A program made the translations under genes and the position numbers. Below are positions 2,632-12,606 of a stretch of 64,000 bases of DNA, one piece after another (within the stretch, counting starts at the first letter, position 1; each line of letters opens with the position of its first letter). A model generated the notes under the pieces. That model saw nothing but the letters and a program-made list of their open reading frames with translations. It had not been told where the DNA came from and searched no databases. The stretch covers positions 2,086,205 to 2,150,204 of the forward strand of contig CBDAVA010000003.1 of the NCBI GenBank assembly GCA_965200785.1, written 5' to 3'. The stretch comes from Alphaproteobacteria bacterium (lineage in GTDB: Bacteria > Pseudomonadota > Alphaproteobacteria > Bin95).

Positions 2632-3494
2632 AAGGTGTTCAGCGGAATCTTGAGATAAGCGCGGCCGTTGCTCTCCGGTTCGGGCAGCTTGCCGCCATGC
2701 ACATTGACCTGAATCGACGGCAACAGCAGCGCCGGCACCGAGAGCTGCCTGTCGCGCTCGGTGCGCATTTCGACAAAGGCCGTCTCGCCGATGCCGTCGC
2801 GCACATGGCGATTTGCCGTCCGTTCCTCGCGCACCGTCGTTTCCCAGGCCACGGGGCGTCCGTTCGGGGCATAGTCATGCCCGACGAAAATGCGTGTTTC
2901 GGGAGGAAGGGACAGAATCCGCCGCGCCGACCGATAGAGCGCCCTGGCGTCGCCGCCGGGGAAGTCGCAGCGCGCCGTGCCGAAGTCCGGCATGAAAACC
3001 GTGTCGCCGGTAAAGGCCGCATCGCCGATGACATAGGTTACGCAAGCCGGCGTATGGCCTGGTGTATGCAGCACCCGCGCCTGCACCCTGCCCAACCGGA
3101 AGCGCGCCTCGTCTTCGAACAGCCGGTCGAATTGGGAGCCGTTCGCAAGGAATTCCGGCGGCAGGTTGTAGATGTCCTTGAAGACAGCCTGCACATCCAC
3201 AATCTGGCTGCCGATGGCCGTTCGCCCGCCAAGCTCGCGTTTCAGCCAGGCGCCGGCGCTCAGATGATCCGCATGGACATGGGTCTCGAGTATCCATTCC
3301 ACGGTCAGTCCGCGCGCCCGGACCCTGGCGGCCAGCTTCTCGGCAAAAACGGTCTGCGTCCGCCCGGAATAAATGTCGTAATCCAGGACCGGGTCGATGA
3401 CAGCCGCCCGACCCGTTTCGGAGCAGGCCACGATATAGCTTACCGTCGAGCTTGCCTCGTGAAACAGCGCCTCTACCACCGGCTGTTCAGCCAT
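2628..3494 (-). CDS. MBL-fold metallo-hydrolase, persulfide-dioxygenase (ETHE1/Blh)-like.
   Basis: Carries the THVHADHLSAG HxHxDH metal motif. It is about 288 aa with the C-terminal extension typical of sulfur dioxygenase-type MBL proteins, and it overlaps the tusA-like gene by 4 nt. Confidence 0.75.
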   Translation of the reverse strand: MAEQPVVEALFHEASSTVSYIVACSETGRAAVIDPVLDYDIYSGRTQTVFAEKLAARVRARGLTVEWILETHVHADHLSAGAWLKRELGGRTAIGSQIVDVQAVFKDIYNLPPEFLANGSQFDRLFEDEARFRLGRVQARVLHTPGHTPACVTYVIGDAAFTGDTVFMPDFGTARCDFPGGDARALYRSARRILSLPPETRIFVGHDYAPNGRPVAWETTVREERTANRHVRDGIGETAFVEMRTERDRQLSVPALLLPSIQVNVHGGKLPEPESNGRAYLKIPLNTF

Positions 3495-3558
3495 GAGTCG
3501 CCCTCTCTCGCCGGGAGGCGCTATCTTACACCGAATTCACCAACGGGAGAACGCATCC

Positions 3559-4311
3559 GTGAGTGCGCCGCTGATCGACTATCGCTCTGAAAACGCCATT
3601 GCAACGATTACGCTGAACCGCCCCGACAAGATGAATGCCCTGTCGAACGGGCTTGTCGCCGAGCTCATCCAGGCATTTCAGCGCCTGCAGGACAGCGGCG
3701 ACCGTGTCGCCATTCTCACCGGCGCCGGAGAGCGGGCGTTTTCGGTGGGCGCCGATCTGCGCGACCCGCCCCGCGATCCGGAGCTTTGGGAATGTATGCC
3801 GGGCGTGGGCGTGATGGTTGACAAGCCGATTATTGCTGCGGTGCAGGGTTATTGCGTCGGGGGCGCCTTCTGCCTGGTCGAATTCTGCGACCTGGCCGTG
3901 GCGGACGAAACCGCCGACTTCTTCTACCCCGAAGCCCAAATCGGATTTTGCGGCGGGCTTATCGCCGGGCTGGCGGCGCGTATTCCGCACAAGCTGGCCA
4001 TGGAGTTCATGATGACCGGGAGGCATTTCGACGCCGCCCGCGCCGCCGACATCGGCATGATCAACCGGGCGGTGCCCAAAGGGGAGTTGATGGCGGCTGC
4101 GATGGAATATGCGGCGGTGCTGCGGGACAGCGCACCGCTGGTCTTGCGAACCGTCAAGCGATTCGTGCGCGATACGGTTGTCGCGCGCGGCCCCTCTGAA
4201 CTCCAGGCATTGGCGCGGCGCGAACTGCTGTCGATCAGCCGCAGCGAAGACCAGAAGGAAGGCGGGCGGGCCTTCCGGGAAAAGCGCAAACCCGAATTCA
4301 CGGGCCGATAA
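3559..4311 (+). CDS. Enoyl-CoA hydratase/isomerase (crotonase) family protein.
   Basis: Crotonase signatures are present (ITLNRPDKMNAL, GAGERAFSVGADL, YCVGGAF). A GTG at 3559 preceded by GGGAGA is the preferred start within ORF 3493-4311. Confidence 0.85.
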   Translation: MSAPLIDYRSENAIATITLNRPDKMNALSNGLVAELIQAFQRLQDSGDRVAILTGAGERAFSVGADLRDPPRDPELWECMPGVGVMVDKPIIAAVQGYCVGGAFCLVEFCDLAVADETADFFYPEAQIGFCGGLIAGLAARIPHKLAMEFMMTGRHFDAARAADIGMINRAVPKGELMAAAMEYAAVLRDSAPLVLRTVKRFVRDTVVARGPSELQALARRELLSISRSEDQKEGGRAFREKRKPEFTGR

Positions 4312-5209: not shown

Positions 5210-5728
5210 ATGCACCTGCCCTTACTGCCGCTGGCCGCCATGGCCGGGCTGGTCGCGTTATCGAATGTCCTGGTCCAGTATCCGATCAATGACTGGCTGA
5301 CCTGGGGCGCGTTCACCTATCCGGTCTGCTTTCTCGTTACGGACCTCACCAACCGGATGCACGGCGCGGCGGCGGCGCGCCGGGTTGTCTATGTCGGTTT
5401 CGCCGCCGCCGTGCTGTTGTCTGTCCTGCTCGCCACGCCGCGCATTGCCGTTGCTTCGGGCCTGGCATTCCTCGCAGCCCAGCTTCTGGATGTGAGCGTG
5501 TTCGACTGGCTGCGGCGCCGGGCCTGGTGGCAGGCGCCGCTGGTTTCCTCCCTGCTCGGCTCTGCTGTCGATACGGCGCTGTTCTTCTCGGCGGCCTTCT
5601 ACGGCACGGACGTCCCCTGGATCACGCTTGGTATGGGGGACTTCCTTTGGAAGGCCGCGTTTGCGCTCGCAATGCTGCTGCCGTTCCGGCTGGCGATGCC
5701 GATAACGGCCCGCCCGAGCCCTCAATAG
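5210..5728 (+). CDS. Queuosine-precursor transporter (YhhQ/DUF165, VUT family).
   Basis: A multi-TM 172-aa protein with the YPINDWLTWGAFTYPVCFLVTDLTNR signature of YhhQ. Confidence 0.75.
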   Translation: MHLPLLPLAAMAGLVALSNVLVQYPINDWLTWGAFTYPVCFLVTDLTNRMHGAAAARRVVYVGFAAAVLLSVLLATPRIAVASGLAFLAAQLLDVSVFDWLRRRAWWQAPLVSSLLGSAVDTALFFSAAFYGTDVPWITLGMGDFLWKAAFALAMLLPFRLAMPITARPSPQ

Positions 5729-6489
5729 GCCGAAATACCGCCCTCCGCCGGGATCACGGCGCCATTCACCATGCGCGACTCGTCCGAAGCGAGGAACAGG
5801 GCGATATTGGCGATATCCTCCGGCTCGCCGACGCCGAAGGGATATTGCTCGAACACGCCGACAGACGCCTCCCTCGGGCGCTCTTCGTTCGGCTGGCGGT
5901 AGCGGGCGCGAATGCGTTCGGTCAGAATCAGGCCGGGGCAGATGACATTGGCGCGCACCCCCGCATCGGAATAGGAACCCGCGAGCGACCGGGTGAAGGA
6001 AATCAGCCCGCCCTTGGCGGCTGAATAGACATGCGCCGGATGATTGCCGCGCAAGGCGACCACCGACGACACATTCACGACGGCCCCGCCGCCGCCGGCG
6101 ACCATATGCGGCACGACATGCCGGCACATCAGCATCGGCCCCTTGAGGTCGAGCGGGATGGTGCGGTTCCAGACATCGAGATCGACCTCGTGGATTTTCG
6201 TATCCTCGACCACCGACCCGCCGGCGCAGTTGAACAGCACGTCGATGCGGCCGAACGCCGCCATCGCCGCCGCTGCGCAGGCCGCCGCCGAAGCATCGTC
6301 GGTCACATCGGTGCGGTGAAACGCAGCGCCGGTTTCCGCTGCCGTTGCCGAGCCCGCCGCCTCGTCGATCTCGGCGACCATCACCTTCGCTCCCTCGCGT
6401 ATGAAGATTCCGGTGGCCGCCTTGGCAATCCCGGACCCCGCGCCGGTAATCACCGCAACCTTTCCCTCGAGGCGTCCCATCTCTTGCAT
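5722..6489 (-). CDS. SDR-family oxidoreductase.
   Basis: Has the GKVAVITGAGSGIAKA Rossmann motif, NCAG, and the YSAAK catalytic motif. It forms the 3' part of a spurious 794-aa minus-strand ORF, with ATG at 6489 as the likely start. Confidence 0.85.
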   Translation of the reverse strand: MQEMGRLEGKVAVITGAGSGIAKAATGIFIREGAKVMVAEIDEAAGSATAAETGAAFHRTDVTDDASAAACAAAAMAAFGRIDVLFNCAGGSVVEDTKIHEVDLDVWNRTIPLDLKGPMLMCRHVVPHMVAGGGGAVVNVSSVVALRGNHPAHVYSAAKGGLISFTRSLAGSYSDAGVRANVICPGLILTERIRARYRQPNEERPREASVGVFEQYPFGVGEPEDIANIALFLASDESRMVNGAVIPAEGGISAY

Positions 6490-6519
6490 CCCTCCTGTTC
6501 CCGGCGCTAGGGTGCGCAC

Positions 6520-8175
6520 ATGCCACGCGAGCTTATCAATCCCTGCGGTATCTACCAGCGCAATAACGGGGCGCTGGCGCCCCGGCGCCCGCTGCAGGAA
6601 ACCCGGGTCATCGGGCTGTTCTCCAATCTCAAGGCCAATGCGGACCGGTATCTGGAAGAGATCGCAGAGCGGCTGAAGGCCCGGCATCCGCATCTCGAAT
6701 TCGCATTGTTCCAGAAGATTGCGAGCGAGCCGGCGAATTTCTCGCAGCAATGGCTGGACCGGGTTCACGCAGTAGCCGCCGCCTTCGGCGATTGAGGCTC
6801 CTGCACGTCGTGGTGTATCCATGACGCCATCAAGCTCGAACAGCGCGGCATTCCGGTTGCCGTAACCTGCACGGACGAGTTCTTCGCGCTTGGCAAGGCG
6901 GAGGCGGAGTGTCTCGGCATGGCCGGCTTGCCGATTGCCGTGGTGCCGCATCCGGTGGCCAAGCTGCCGCCTGCCGGCGTTGCGGAGATCGCCGACGAGG
7001 CCATCGACCAGATCGTCCATATGCTGGAGGCGGAGCCGGTCGCGCTTGCGGAAGAATGCCGCAAGCGCCCGCTGCCGAAACGCGGGCGCCTTCGCTACCG
7101 CTCCTTGTTCGAGGGCGATTTCAATGCGCCCGGCGCACCGGAGCGAATCTCCGGCCCGGACTCCCCCGACGCGCTCAACCGCGTCTTTTACCAGCGCGGC
7201 TGGACCGACGGCCTGCCTGTCGTCGCGCCGACGCCGGACCGGTGGGAAGCCATGCTGGGCGGGCGCGACCCCGGGGAGGAGATCGGCCTCATCGAGCCCC
7301 GCCTTGGCTGCGCAACCATCGGCAAGGTGGCGGCCAACGCCGTCATGGCCGGGGCCTCGCCGGCCATGATGCCGGCGATCCTGGCGGCAACCCGGGCGAT
7401 GACCGCCGAACGGCTGAACCTGAAGGCGCTCCAGTCCACAACCCATCCCTGCGGCCTGCTGACCGTTGTGCACGGCCCCATGGCGGACGACCTCGATATC
7501 GCCTCGGGCACCAACTGCATGGGCCAGGGCGCCGTCGCCAATGCCGCGATCGGACGCGCCGTCCGGCTTGTGCTGACCAATATCGGCGGCGCCCAGCCCG
7601 GCGTGCTCGACCGCGCGACAATGGGCACTCCGGCCAAATACAGCTACTGCTTCGCGGAAAACCTCGAAGCCAATCCATGGGCCCCCTTCCACACGGAACG
7701 CGGCTTCGATGCAGGCCGGAACGCGGTCACGCTGTGCGGCGTCGAGGGGCCGCATAATGTCAATGACCACTACAGCGAAACCGCCGAAGATGTGTTGCTG
7801 ACGGTCTGCGGCACCATGGCGACGCCCGGCTGCAACAACTCCTATTTCCACGGCGAATATCTGGTCGTGATCGGGCCGGAACATGCCGAGGTGATTGCGC
7901 GCGAGGGCTGGTCCAAGGACGATGTCAAGCGCTTCATCATCGAGCGCGCGATCATCCCGCGCTGGCACATCGGCAAGGCGCAGATGGCGCTTTACCGCCA
8001 GCAGGTGCCGGAACGGTTTGTCGGCCCCGATGGCCGGGACGGCGTGCGCATCGTGAGCGAGCCGGAGCAGCTCATGGTGATGGTCGCCGGCGGCGCCGGG
8101 CGGCATTCCTGCGTCATTCCCTCCTTCGGCAGCACCCTCTCGGTCACGCAGGCTGTCGAGGATCAGATGCGCTGA
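6520..8175 (+). CDS. Candidate selenoprotein with a D-U-G-S-C motif (in-frame TGA at 6793-6795 read as Sec); the N-terminal redox-like domain is followed by a large domain of unknown function.
   Basis: ORFs 6520-6795 and 6919-8175 are in the same frame and are separated only by the TGA. The 120 nt between them keep high GC3 coding character (…AAFGD-TGA-GSCTSWCIHDAIKLEQRGIPVAVTC…). A hairpin lies 11 nt downstream of the TGA. Alternative readings are two separate genes or a pseudogene. Confidence 0.5.
6806..6826 (+). promoter_or_regulatory. Candidate bacterial SECIS hairpin.
   Basis: CGUCGUGG-UGUAU-CCAUGACG forms an 8-bp stem (one G-U pair) with a 5-nt loop. It begins 11 nt 3' of the in-frame UGA, the canonical position for bacterial SECIS elements. 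Confidence 0.4.
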
Positions 8176-8238
8176 GCCGCCATGTCTGCGGGGGAATCCG
8201 GCATGTTTGATGCCGGAGACCGTGCATCCGCGGGCAGT

Positions 8239-9125
8239 GTCTCAGTTTGTAACGAAGGCCCGTGCCGGCGGGTTTTTCGGAATGCGCCTCCGTGCTGCGC
8301 CGCTTCTATCGCCTCCCTTGTCGTCACCCCGGCCGGAGCAGAGCGGAGAGCCGGGGGCTGTCCTCCGCCGTTTCGACCCCGCGGAAAGATCAGAGGCTGG
8401 GCCCCGGCTCAAGGCCGGGGCGACAACAGGGCGTCCGGGGCGACGGCAGGGCAGGCCGGGGCGGCGAGTGGGGGTTCGGGGTGACGGGGGCCGGGTGCGG
8501 CAGGCAGGGTCATTCGGGGCACGGCCCGCATTGCGGCCCGAATGAAGCACCCCGCCCGTCACCCCGGCCGGCGCGCCCGCCTTCTTGTCACCCCGGCCGG
8601 AGCGCAGCGGAGAGCCGGGGTCCATCCTCTGCCGTTTCGTCCCTGCGGAAGGATCGGAGGCTGGGCCCCGGCTCAAGGCCGGGGCGACAGTAGGGCGTCC
8701 GGGGCGACAGTAGGGGTGTCCGGGGCGACGGCAGGGCAGGCCGGGTGCGGCAGGCAGGGTCATTCGGGGCACAGCCCGTATTGCGGCCCGAATGAAGCAC
8801 CCCGCCCGTCACTCCGGCCGGCGCGTGTGCCCTCGCGTCACCCCGCCGGCGCGCCCATCCTCCCGTCACCCCGGATGGAGCATGTGCCTCCTCTTGTCAC
8901 CCCGGCCGGAGCGCAGCGGAGAGCCGGGGTCCATCCTCCGCCGCTTCGGCCTTGCGGAAGGAACGGAGGCTGGGCCCCGGCTCAAAGCCGGGGCGACAGT
9001 AGTGGCGTCCGAGGCGACAGCAGGGCAGGCCGAGACAGCGCCGGGGGGGCGGGGCGGCGGGCCGGGCCTCTCAAGCTCCTGGCTGACTCTGCCAGAGGAA
9101 CGCGAATGCCAAACGGAGGCACTGC
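8239..9125 (+). repeat. Composite GC-rich intergenic repeat element (locus A), with the internal ~150-bp module present three times in tandem and interleaved with a second palindromic module.
   Basis: It begins with GTCTCAGTTTGTAACGAAGGCCCGTGCCGGCGGGTTTTTCGG and ends with …CTGCCAGAGGAACGCGAATGCCAAACGGAGGC. The module GTCACCCCGGCCGGAGCGCAGCGGAGAGCCGGGG…CTGGGCCCCGGCTCAAGGCCGGGGCGACA occurs at ~8320, ~8590 and ~8900. The same family recurs at 18236-18540, 36400-36712 and 54945-55168. Confidence 0.7.
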
Positions 9126-9204
9126 CGTCGGCAGGCGTTTTCCTGCCTTGCGCCAGCGCGGCCGCTTTCTATGGTGCAGCCATCTCATGCAAGGAGCAAC
9201 AAGG

Positions 9205-9687
9205 ATGACAATTGCAGCAGGAGACAAGGTGCCGGCGACGACCTTGAAGGAGATGACCGACAACGGACCGCAAAACGTCGAAACGGACGGTCTCTTCAGC
9301 GGAAAGAAGGTCGTCGCATTCTGCGTTCCCGGCGCGTTCACGCCGACATGCTCGGCCAAGCATCTTCCCGGCTTTATCGAGAAGGCGGACGCGATTCGCG
9401 CCAAGGGGGTGGATGACATCGTCTGCCTGTCGGTCAATGACCCCTTTGTCATGGGCGCCTGGGGCGAGGATCAAGGCGCTGCCGGCAAGGTCCGGATGCT
9501 GGCCGACGGGAGCGGCAATCTCGCCCGGGCCATGGGCGTCGAACTCGATCTGAGCGGCCTCGGGCTCGGCATACGCGCGCGCCGCTATTCCATGATCGTC
9601 GAGGACGGCACCGTCACACATCTCAATCTCGAGGACGGCGGGGCTTTCGAGGTTTCCAGCGCCGAAAGGATTCTGGAGCAGCTCTAG
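9205..9687 (+). CDS. Peroxiredoxin (Prx5-like, AhpC/TSA family).
   Basis: Has the FTPTCS peroxidatic Cys motif and Prx5-type length (160 aa). The ATG at 9205 is preceded by AAGGAG. Confidence 0.9.
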
Positions 9688-10127
9688 CACCGGGCGTCCT
9701 CGCGCCCGGCCTGCCGGCGCGCGAGGGCGTCAACGCGCTCGTTCTCCAGGTGGCCGGAGTGGCCGCGCACCCAGCGCCACTCGACCTGATGGGGAGCAAG
9801 GGCTGCATCCAGACGCTGCCAGAGGTCGATATTCTTCACCGGCTTTCTGGCGGCGGTGCGCCAGCCATTGCGCTTCCATGCCGGCATCCAGGACCGGACT
9901 CCGTCCATGACATAGCGGCTGTCGGTGGTCAGCAGCACGCTGCAAGGGCGGTTGAGAGCTTCAAGGCCCGCTATCGCCGCCATCAATTCCATTCGGTTGT
10001 TGGTCGTGTCCGGAGCGCCGCCGACGAGTTCCGACTCATGCGTGCCGCACCGCAACAGCGCCGCCCAGCCGCCGGGGCCCGGATTGCCCAGGCAGGCGCC
10101 GTCGGTGAAGAGTTCAACACGGGTCAC
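9684..10127 (-). CDS. rnhA: Ribonuclease HI.
   Basis: Conserved RNase H motifs are present ([24 protein letters not shown]). It overlaps thrB by 4 nt. Confidence 0.9.
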
Positions 10128-11041
10128 GACAATCCATCCAGCTTGCGCAGATATTCGACGGGATCCTTGGGGGTCATCAGCACGGCCGGCGACGGGTGAA
10201 GCCAGTCATGCAGGCGCGTCAGCAGAAAACGAAGCGCCGCGCCGCGCCTGAGTTCGGGCAATGCGCGAATTTCCGGAGGCGCCAGCGGCCGGACAGCCTC
10301 GTAACCCTTCTGCATCTCGACCGCCGCCTGCATATCGAAACGCCCCTCCGGATCGACGGTCCACGCAACCTGTGTGATGGCGAGGTCGTATGCCAACGCA
10401 TCGGTGCACGCAAAATAGAAATCGAAAATGCCGGAAACGGCGCTGTCCCGGAAAACCGCATTGTCGGGAAACAGGTCGGCGTGAATCGGGCCTGTCGGCA
10501 GGCCCGCCGGCCAGTGCTCCGCGATTTCCGCCAGCGCCCCGGAAATGCGCCCGGCAAGACCGGGCGACACGTCGTCGGCCCGATCCTGTGTCATGGCGCT
10601 GAGGCGGCGCCATCCCTCCGGCCCGAGATCGTTGGCCCGCACATGTCTGAAATCGGCGCCGGCCAGATGCAGCCTTCCAAGCGCCTCCCCGATGGCCCGG
10701 AAAGCCCGAGAGTCGCGTTCTCCTTCCAGAAAGGTGACGATCAGAGCCGTTCGGCCAGCCAGCGGCGACAGGGTTCCGCCGTCGCGGCGGCGCACCGGGG
10801 CAGGGCAGGGCGCCCCGCGGTTTGCGAGATGATCCATCAGGGCAACGAAAAACGGCAGGTCTGCGGCCCGGATACGATCTTCGAACAGCGTCAGCACATA
10901 GCGGCCCGATGACGCCTCAAGCATGTAGTTGGTGTTGTCTATTCCCTCGGGAATGGGGTCGAAGCGCAACAGACGCCCCAGATTGTATCCGTTCAGGAAC
11001 TGCTCCAGTGCGGCAGCGCCGACCGGGGTATAAACCGCCAT
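10124..11041 (-). CDS. thrB: Homoserine kinase (APH-fold ThrB type).
   Basis: The N-terminus MAVYTPV…[11 protein letters not shown]…GIDNTNY is typical of Pseudomonas/alpha-type homoserine kinase. The ispH-thrB-rnhA synteny supports this. Confidence 0.85.
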
Positions 11042-11047
11042 ACAGGT

Positions 11048-11998
11048 TCAGGCCGCCAGTCCGCGCGGCAGCTTGAACTTCACCGTTTCCCGGGTATCGG
11101 TCCACTCCTCAACCGTCACGGAGAAGCGTTCGCGGCAAGCCTCGACGACCCCTCCAACCAGCACCTCCGGCGCAGACGCGCCGGCCGTGACGGCCAGCAC
11201 CTTCACACCCTTCAAGGCGTCCCAGTCGATATGGTCCGCGCTGTTGACCAGAAACGCCTTGGGGCAACCGGCAGCCTTCGCCACTTCCACCAGTCGATTG
11301 GAGTTTGAAGAGTTCGGAGAGCCAAGCACGATTACGGCGTCGGCGCCGGGAACAACTGTTTTGACGGCTGCCTGGCGATTGGTCGTGGCGTAGCAGATGT
11401 CGTCACTCCTGGGCTCATGCAGTCCGGGAAAACGCGCGCGAAGCGCAGCGATGATTTCGGCGGTGTCATCCACGGAAAGCGTTGTCTGGGTGACATAGGC
11501 AATTTCGCGGTCCGGCGGGGGCTGAACCTGGCGGGCTTCCTCGACGGTCTGGACCAGTTTGACGGCGCCCTCGGGCAGTTGCCCCATAGTGCCCACGACT
11601 TCGGGATGACCTGCATGACCGATCAACAGCAGGTGCCGGCCGGCCGCGAAATGCCGTTCGACTTCCCGATGGACCTTGCTCACCAATGGGCAAGTGGCGT
11701 CGATATAATCGAGCTCGCGCCGGCTGGCTTCCTCGGGAACGGATTTGGGGACGCCATGCGCTGAAAATACCACCGGCACGTCATCCGGCACCTTGTCCAG
11801 ACTCTCGACGAAAATAGCGCCCTTGTCCTGAAGCGTCTCGACGACAAAACGGTTGTGAACGATCTCATGGCGCACATAGACAGGCGCACCATACCGCTCC
11901 AGCGCAACTTCGACAGCCTGAATAGCCCGCACCACGCCGGCGCAAAATCCGCGTGGACCAGCGAGACGGATCGTGAGCGGCGGCTTCTCTCCCGTCAT
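11048..11998 (-). CDS. ispH: 4-hydroxy-3-methylbut-2-enyl diphosphate reductase.
   Basis: LytB motifs are present (GFCAGV, three conserved Cys, SSNSNRL). Confidence 0.9.
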
Positions 11999-12072
11999 TG
12001 TGCGATCCTCCGGTCCGTTCTAAGGTCGGCAGTGCAACGGCGTATTGCCGAGCTTAATGCAGAGGACGGTCG

Positions 12073-12606
12073 ATGGCGAGAGGGTTTGCGGTTGGAGCTG
12101 CGGGGCTGGTGGCGGCGCTTTCGGTCCTGGGAGGCTGTTCGGCCATTGGCGGCAAATCCACATCCTGCCCGACCGTCGGCGTCGTCGATAACGCCGGGCA
12201 ACTGACACGGTTCAGGAGCGGCGAACAGCGCGACCTTACGGATATCGAGTTCGAGGTGCAGGTTGCCAGCCTGTCCGCCGACTGCAGCTTCGACAGCGAG
12301 ACGCGGCTCGGCTCCGTGGAGCTCGACATCGCATTCCGCGCGCAGCGCGGGCCTGCGAGCATGACAGCTGCACACAGCTTCGGCTATTTCGTCGCCATCG
12401 TTGATCCTGACGGCAGCGTCACGGCCCGGAAGGCGTTTTCCATGCAGGCCGCTTTCGAGGACGGCAAGACGGAGGCGGTGCGCACCGAGCCGCTGGCCCT
12501 CACGATCCCGACGGCGGAAGGCACGGCGTTTCCCGCTTACCGAATCTATGTCGGGATGCAGCTCACGCGCGAACAGTTCGACCGTAACCTGACAGGCGGC
12601 CGCTAG
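12073..12606 (+). CDS. Hypothetical lipoprotein.
   Basis: Signal peptide plus lipobox (LSVLGG-C-S). There is no recognisable catalytic motif. The ATG is preceded by AGAGGA. Confidence 0.55.
   Translation: MARGFAVGAAGLVAALSVLGGCSAIGGKSTSCPTVGVVDNAGQLTRFRSGEQRDLTDIEFEVQVASLSADCSFDSETRLGSVELDIAFRAQRGPASMTAAHSFGYFVAIVDPDGSVTARKAFSMQAAFEDGKTEAVRTEPLALTIPTAEGTAFPAYRIYVGMQLTREQFDRNLTGGR

Follow-up and report, generated by a model that had tools for sequence, protein, structure and literature searches.

Locus and reading frame

Within a 64,000-nucleotide (64-kb) stretch of an alphaproteobacterial genome (contig CBDAVA010000003.1, hereafter the window), a plus-strand reading frame at 6520-8175 is interrupted by one in-frame TGA. 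We propose that this TGA is read as selenocysteine (Sec) and that the locus very probably encodes one 551-residue selenoprotein, in which an in-gene hairpin would act as a Sec insertion sequence (SECIS) and a UGSC-family domain would be joined to a partner domain in a putative reductase relay. The features of the gene are as follows:

6520-8175, plus strand: predicted complete selenoprotein gene, 551 codons including Sec92, terminal stop TGA at 8173-8175
6532-7029, plus strand: UGSC domain (amino acids (aa) 5-170), defined by PF24696/NF041046 matches, predicted flavodoxin-like alpha/beta fold
6793-6795, plus strand: in-frame TGA, proposed Sec codon 92 from the comparison of 89 UGSC copies; flanks conserved as coding sequence
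6793-6804, plus strand: U-G-S-C redox motif (Sec92, Cys95), [U/C]-G-[S/A/G]-C in nearly all copies
6806-6826, plus strand: SECIS-type hairpin, arms 6806-6813/6819-6826, loop UGUAU 6814-6818 (G6815, U6816), conserved core 6807-6813/6819-6825
6919-6921, plus strand: internal ATG (Met134), false start used by gene callers for a 418-aa open reading frame (ORF)
7030-7116, plus strand: inter-domain linker (about aa 171-199), poorly conserved, with low predicted local distance difference test (pLDDT) values near 190-200; tblastn high-scoring segment pairs (HSPs) break here in distant relatives
7117-8172, plus strand: partner domain (aa 200-551), with motifs conserved in relatives

An earlier note made from the sequence alone had described one frame broken only by the TGA at 6793-6795, and translation of 6520-8175 on the plus strand agrees: this TGA is the sole internal stop (context AAAFGD-*-GSCTSWCIHD). 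The peptide around the U-G-S-C site reads ...VAAAFGD-U-GSCTSWCIHDAIK, D-U-G-S-C being residues 91-95. For protein searches the stop was replaced with Cys. The resulting sequence aligns end to end with a 554-aa Cys homologue, P0006 (99% coverage), the two starts agreeing as well (MPRELINPCG vs MSIQLVNPCG). The comparison with CGSC homologues that the note had called for thus gives DCGSC in P0006 at the aligned site, and 88 other copies align with D-U-G-S-C as well. In the eight closest relatives (L001-L008), tblastn returns one HSP over the entire gene.

Codon differences from the 89%-identical L001 were counted separately upstream and downstream of the TGA. Over residues 1-91, 23 of the differing codons are synonymous and 14 non-synonymous, and over residues 93-133 the corresponding counts are 7 and 1; at the level of this codon comparison, purifying selection acts on either side of the TGA. 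The second segment corresponds to the 41 codons (6796-6918) between the TGA and the ATG at 6919, which the note had read as sensible protein and which we translate to the same sequence.

The simplest alternative is that the TGA is a true stop and that the locus holds two genes, one of 91 residues (6520-6795) and one of 418 residues starting at ATG 6919. Public gene calls split the locus exactly in this way (L083:3292-4947, identical in sequence to window 6520-8175), giving a 91-aa UGSC ORF and a 418-aa ORF without a Pfam match, and the Sec machinery was not found in the 64-kb window. A stop at this position would, however, cut the UGSC domain mid-fold, the Pfam match (residues 5-170) crossing the TGA, and Met134 lies inside that domain. 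The alternative is also countered by the purifying selection on the 41 intervening codons, by the continuity of Cys-form homologues, and by the presence of TGA at the identical codon in 80 copies from many phyla, with conserved in-frame sequence after each. Two separate genes are therefore very improbable. An alternative genetic code, with UGA read as Trp or Gly, was also considered and rejected, because TGA terminates both this gene and its neighbours and the organism is an alphaproteobacterium of high GC content. When the window was scanned for further in-frame TGA codons between ORFs rich in third-position G+C, 23 sites qualified on mechanical grounds, and no redox motif accompanies any of them.

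UGSC family membership and the codon at the Sec position

The N-terminal part is, from its profile matches, a member of the uncharacterised UGSC family. It reaches 146.8 bits against Pfam PF24696 ('UGSC family', cut-off 25), the match spanning the TGA, and 129.2 bits against NCBIfam NF041046 ('UGSC family (seleno)protein', cut-off 125). The earlier proposal of a UGSC-type selenoprotein is borne out insofar as both curated cut-offs are passed and the TGA aligns with Cys in homologues. The 'UGSC-containing protein' is a computationally identified selenoprotein family, first noted in the alphaproteobacterium Hyphomonas neptunium and in marine metagenomes (PMC1976440), and a 2026 review still gives it as uncharacterised (PMC13188914). 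The window gene shares with this family (NF041046/PF24696; Zhang & Gladyshev 2007/2008) both the domain and a U-G-S-C motif at the equal position; the family model spans about 147 residues, to which the window gene adds a 350-residue partner domain, and there is no essential difference between them.

A scan of one genome per species yielded at least 593 loci, of which 80 were retained; together with the window, these hold the 89 UGSC-domain copies on which the counts below are based. The codon at the Sec position is TGA in 80 of the 89, TGC or TGT in 8 and TAG in 1. This excess of Sec over Cys forms (80 vs 8) is in line with that reported for the family in the Global Ocean Sampling (GOS) data, 255 vs 21 (PMC2398784). 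TGA forms occur in alpha-, beta-, gamma- and deltaproteobacteria, Rokubacteria/Methylomirabilota, Chloroflexi, Actinobacteria (Acidimicrobiales) and Bacillaceae. The archaeal copies, from Natronomonas gomsonensis (L015) and Methanobacterium/Methanobacteriaceae (L019 and L061), are all Cys forms.

The protein search retrieved more than 2,000 relatives, nearly all of which cover 75-80% of the query and start soon after the TGA position, the signature of gene callers halting at a Sec codon. The downstream ORF is found in identical form on several independent metagenome assemblies, and for two of these the 91-aa upstream UGSC ORF is shown as well.

These data also bear on the idea that a Cys-form gene was recently inactivated by a mutation to TGA, or that the TGA was introduced by a sequencing error, a TGC to TGA change needing one base only. 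It is hard to reconcile with the identical downstream ORF on independent assemblies, with the TGA in L001 and 79 further copies, with the coding-like evolution of both TGA flanks, and with the co-varying hairpin described below, which goes with TGA and is degraded in Cys forms. We regard such a pseudogene or artefact as scarcely credible.

Two variants at the Sec position are worth recording. The TAG copy, in Blastococcus sp. CT_GayMR19 (L044:10193-10195), retains an intact hairpin (7/7 core pairs) and has a thioredoxin reductase (TrxR)-like gene upstream; recent pseudogenisation or a fault in the assembly, among other possibilities, could account for it. In a subgroup the motif is [U/C]-G-[S/T]-S and lacks the resolving Cys, with TGA in L038:6265 and L050:6632 and TGC in L039:10283 and L047:10274; here the standard hairpin is weak or replaced.

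A SECIS-type hairpin downstream of the TGA

Folding recovers the 8-bp hairpin that the earlier note had placed 11 nt downstream of the TGA, with arms 6806-6813/6819-6826 and loop UGUAU. It starts at the 11th nucleotide past the TGA, which leaves an 18-nt spacing from UGA to loop, and its centroid energy, when folded by itself, is -12.2 kcal/mol. The bacterial SECIS (bSECIS) model sets the apical loop at 3-9 nt and the stem at 4-16 bp, places the loop 16-37 nt after the UGA, asks for a G at one of the first two nucleotides of the loop and then G or U, and limits the minimum free energy to at most -7.5 kcal/mol (PMC13188914). The hairpin, for which the note had suggested a predictor of this kind, agrees with the model on all four constraints, the loop being 5 nt long with G then U at positions 2-3, the spacing 18 nt and the energy -12.2 kcal/mol. 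As in bacterial SECIS elements of the E. coli fdhF/fdnG type, the element lies within coding sequence directly after UGA and consists of a short stem and a small loop with G then U; it differs in having no Rfam family match, its sequence being specific to the UGSC family.

Conservation was assessed in a gap-free alignment of 69 TGA-form segments, stem columns 14-21 pairing with 27-34. In total, 86.6% of stem cells are paired and compensatory double changes occur in 7/8 pairs; for all five covariation measures none of 500 shuffles reaches the observed values, and controls with slid partners are far lower. The expectation that the hairpin would be conserved in relatives thus holds for 7/8 pairs, kept with compensatory changes, and fails for the outermost pair, 6806/6826, which is unpaired in 48/67 distinct sequences, so that the conserved core is 7 bp. 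The loop consensus is N-G-U-N-U, positions 2 and 3 being G and U in more than 90% of relatives even where they fall at different codon positions. Six sequences swap the loop-closing G:C pair to C:G (TGG..ATC-C to TGC..ATG-C), replacing Trp by Cys and Ile by Met at once, and L043 carries the same closing-pair swap together with a largely rewritten stem, GCGCGC/GCGCG. The coupling of the Trp to Cys and Ile to Met codon swaps therefore indicates selection on the RNA. TGA forms retain on average 6.65/7 core pairs (-11.4 kcal/mol) vs 4.6/7 (-5.6 kcal/mol) in seven Cys forms.

Could the hairpin be a by-product of conserved codons (T-S-W-x-x-H-D), with Sec inserted through another element or not at all? 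The stem lies wholly within conserved coding sequence, its energy in the window is not exceptional, and a similar stem can still be drawn for L015, an archaeal Cys form. Against this, the compensatory double changes alter amino acids in step (the six closing-pair swaps and the rewritten stem of L043), the loop G and U stay above 90% conserved despite their different codon positions, and the stem decays in most of the Cys forms with similar residues. A mere by-product of the codons is thus quite unlikely, and a SECIS-type role for the hairpin is the reading we carry forward.

Sec machinery

Searches for the Sec decoding machinery around UGSC genes were largely negative. In the window, the Rfam scan detected nothing beyond two ordinary tRNAs, with neither a SECIS nor a tRNA-Sec family among its matches; ARAGORN found no tRNA-Sec in the 80 loci; and with E. 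coli SelA, SelB and SelD as tblastn queries on the window and the 80 loci, the only match was a selB in L077, an Acetobacteraceae metagenome-assembled genome (MAG). There, selB (TIGR00475, 398 bits, cut-off 242) lies directly upstream of the homologous system, making L077 the only one of the 80 loci in which Sec machinery adjoins it. The L077 segment at 5266-12557 reads, in one orientation, CaiB-type CoA-transferase, selB, TrxR-like gene, split Sec-UGSC gene, partner domain and second partner paralogue.

The partner domain and its association with UGSC

Downstream of the UGSC domain, the remaining ~380 residues have no Pfam or NCBIfam match, even at E<=5 across 94 members, and a profile of the partner domain has no match among Protein Data Bank sequences at E<=10. 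Conservation is much stronger here than in the UGSC domain: about 50 columns are invariant and hold many His, Cys, Glu, Asp, Asn and Arg residues, among them H309, C311, C377, H412, H417, H455 and H529, and the recurrent motifs are WTDGLP, NAVMAG, TTHPC, GQG..AN...GR, PGxLDR, CFxEN, EGPHNVNDH, GPEHA and GGxGRHS.

The architecture of each copy was called by walking from the Sec/Cys codon to the next stop. By this measure 31 of the 89 copies are fused, running 433-480 codons past the Sec/Cys position (the window and its closest relatives L001-L008 included), and 57 are split, with a stop after 77-125 codons and a partner gene that starts from a few to ~200 nt downstream or overlaps the UGSC stop; one copy was assigned to neither class. 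The UGSC gene of the split form, seen at roughly two in three related loci, encodes a selenoprotein of about 175 aa. The order is reversed, partner gene first, in L043, L058, L060 and L076. The earlier note had considered the fusion to ~400 further residues unusual, a judgement that does not survive these counts: the extension is of ~380 residues and, at 31 fused vs 57 split copies, fusion is a common architecture. A UGSC/'Unknown_1' domain fusion was in fact described in 2008 (PMC2398784), and Unknown_1 may be the partner domain.

Across the 80 loci, the partner domain adjoins or is fused to every UGSC copy examined. The fusions, as Rosetta-stone evidence, are an indication that UGSC and partner act together, and on its co-occurrence the 350-residue C-terminal segment is the predicted obligatory partner of UGSC. 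The partner domain also occurs as a protein of its own. An exhaustive search with this domain gave 4,890 representative clusters (E<=1e-3), and the top 150 representatives were classified as 78 stand-alone proteins, 40 N-truncated fusions (Sec forms), 20 full-length fusions and 12 others; the motif was located in 11/20 of these full-length fusions and carries Cys in all 11. A second, UGSC-less partner paralogue lies alongside in L014, L032, L035, L040, L044, L048, L077 and L079, and in L015 a second partner-domain gene is found directly upstream.

Duplication goes further in some lineages. Tandem double-partner proteins exist (P0247 and P0263), and several UGSC/partner copies can be packed into a single 20-kb locus, with 5 copies in L075, 4-5 in L057 and 3 each in L030 and L060, mainly in a Chloroflexi MAG and in betaproteobacteria.

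Both domains were modelled with AlphaFold2. The full-length Cys form P0006 gave a pLDDT of 89.7 and a predicted template modelling score (pTM) of 0.87, and the window partner domain a pLDDT of 90.2 and a pTM of 0.91. In the model, the UGSC domain adopts a flavodoxin-like alpha/beta fold with the Sec position at a helix N-terminus straight after a beta-strand; the thioredoxin fold proposed for the motif-bearing domain in 2008 was not found. The predicted fold of the partner domain is apparently without a solved relative.

Relation to GrdB/PrdB and to flavoprotein reductases

Eight of 10 diverse UGSC domains give weak co-linear matches to the GrdB, GrdF, GrdH and 'various selenoprotein B' models, over profile positions ~327-406 of 431 (best E 1.1e-5; best relative 24.6 bits). 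We take this region to be the part that carries the UxxC Sec of GrdB/PrdB. The two groups (GrdB/GrdF/GrdH/PrdB being covered by TIGR01917/TIGR01918) have in common a UxxC with Sec and a larger second partner protein. GrdB and PrdB are re-reduced by a thioredoxin-type system. There are also differences: (i), the scores are 11-25 bits vs cut-offs of 65-602; (ii), no GrdA, GrdE or PrdA homologue is detectable, and the partner domain is unlike the pyruvoyl proproteins; (iii), the hosts are mostly aerobic proteobacteria, not Stickland-fermenting clostridia. Because scores lie so far below the cut-offs, UGSC would be at most a remote homologue of the Sec-bearing GrdB/PrdB region and not a member of that family. 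A literature search for a characterised GrdB/PrdB-like homologue gave nothing relevant. A pyruvoyl-enzyme (PrdA/GrdE-like) identity of the partner was considered and left as unsupported speculation, there being no similarity of sequence or fold.

A second connection is to TrxR-like flavoproteins. In six loci from alphaproteobacteria, an actinobacterium and a Bacillaceae (L031, L035, L044, L048, L072 and L077), the gene directly upstream is TrxR-like. In P0149, a TrxR moiety (TIGR01292, 331 bits, CAVC motif) is fused to the C-terminus of the partner domain itself; in both loci that encode it (L086:4435-7088 and L087:487-3140), a stand-alone Sec-UGSC gene (FD*GSCSSW) precedes, its stop overlapping the start of the fusion, and MarR, AMP-ligase and acyl-CoA dehydrogenase genes are divergent.

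This arrangement recalls relays of the AhpF/AhpC and TrxR/Trx type, in which, as in the relay proposed below, a pyridine-nucleotide-disulfide flavoprotein of the TrxR family is combined with a small domain bearing a redox motif and with a catalytic protein at the end of the chain, and in which, as in the UGSC system, different adjacent parts are fused in different lineages. It departs from them in that the UGSC carrier is predicted to be flavodoxin-like, not of thioredoxin fold, and would use Sec, and in that the partner domain is related neither to peroxiredoxins nor to a structure solved so far.

Proposed mechanism and its alternatives

In the mechanism that we favour, the UGA at 6793-6795 would be decoded as Sec, with the hairpin 10 nt further on (loop UGUAU) serving as the SelB-binding SECIS element. 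U92-x-x-C95 would then cycle between a selenol/thiol form and a selenenylsulfide: electrons from NAD(P)H would enter through a TrxR-type flavoprotein or, in the window, presumably through the general thioredoxin system, reach the UxxC centre and pass to the conserved His/Cys/Glu/Asn-rich site of the partner domain, which would reduce a small substrate. Neighbouring genes suggest an organic acid or an acyl-CoA derivative, and this is a guess. The recurrent neighbours are TctC-type solute-binding proteins (25 loci), enoyl-CoA hydratases (16 loci; 3493-4311 in the window) and acyl-CoA dehydrogenases (11 loci), as well as AMP-forming ligases, MmgE/PrpD proteins, CaiB-type CoA-transferases and MaoC-like dehydratases. 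We infer this relay from NAD(P)H over TrxR and UxxC to the partner because of the TrxR fusions and adjacency, the likeness to GrdB and these neighbours taken together.

Several observations weigh against the proposal, some touching Sec decoding and others the relay. A 60-nt segment around the hairpin folds with an unremarkable energy for a sequence of 65% G+C (z = 0.03 vs dinucleotide shuffles), and because the fold energy alone is ordinary the hairpin is meaningful only via its relatives; the stem moreover sits in coding sequence (T-S-W-C-I-H-D), so that part of its conservation reflects protein constraint. No selA, selB, selD or tRNA-Sec is present in the 64-kb window, which is perhaps 1.5% of the genome. 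The window protein itself scores only 10.8 bits (E 0.16) against the GrdB model, whose cut-off is 602, a similarity far below family cut-offs and outside membership. Finally, the window has no TrxR-like neighbour, and the relay rests on fusion or adjacency in a minority of cases, 6/80 loci and one fusion family.

How the two domains share the work is where the most serious alternative arises. Sec might be inserted as proposed, with the UGSC domain itself as the catalyst (peroxidase-like, or a thiol-disulfide oxidoreductase, with proteins or small thiols as its targets) and the C-terminal domain confined to binding, scaffolding or regulation. A UxxC motif is characteristic of self-sufficient thiol oxidoreductases, UGSC proteins of 190-216 aa also occur on their own, the window has a peroxiredoxin gene 1 kb further downstream, and a generic redox role was proposed in the 2008 survey (PMC2398784). 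This assignment is nevertheless at odds with the stronger conservation of the partner domain, whose pattern of ~50 invariant His/Cys/Glu/Asp/Asn/Arg-rich columns suggests an active site, with the finding that each UGSC copy examined in these loci has an adjacent or fused partner, often with a second paralogue, and with P0149, where TrxR is fused to the partner domain and not to UGSC. We consider UGSC catalysis unlikely, if a good deal less so than the alternatives that deny Sec insertion or a role for the hairpin, and retain the partner domain as the candidate catalytic site.

Confidence is therefore uneven across the proposal. Judged from comparative sequence data, Sec decoding and the UGSC reading are supported with high confidence. 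That UGSC, partner and TrxR-like proteins form a previously unrecognised Se-dependent reductase system is a tentative suggestion, and one we would not yet bet on: such a system would be widespread (aerobic proteobacteria, Chloroflexi, Methylomirabilota and others), would correspond distantly to the glycine/proline reductases of clostridia, and would have a catalytic subunit of unsolved fold acting on a substrate of organic acid or acyl-CoA type.

The gene adds a new, mis-annotated member to a selenoprotein family already known, has an architecture that was reported before, and is in itself unsurprising. It matters first for annotation, the gene and thousands of its relatives being split or N-truncated in public sets where the correct product would be one 551-residue selenoprotein. 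The mildly interesting part is the function of the UGSC/partner/TrxR-like module and the fold of the partner, for which the obligatory partner domain, the recurrent TrxR-like fusions and neighbours and the remote GrdB/PrdB relation provide handles.

Gene neighbourhood in the window

One divergent gene flanks the frame on its upstream side and is given for context only:

5722-6489, minus strand: SDR (short-chain dehydrogenase/reductase)-family oxidoreductase gene, NCBIfam SDR models at E ~1e-57

It begins 30 nt from ATG 6520, in agreement with the distance of ~30 bp given in the earlier note, and the SDR/UGSC synteny recurs on independent metagenome contigs. On the other side, the peroxiredoxin gene occupies 9205-9687. 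The 1-kb intergenic region before it contains, at 8299-9069, three copies of a ~190-260 nt unit, 66-81% identical, each holding a GAGCCGGGG...CCCCGGCTC palindrome; these units look like REP- (repetitive extragenic palindromic) or MITE- (miniature inverted-repeat transposable element) like intergenic repeats and yield spurious long ORFs on both strands.

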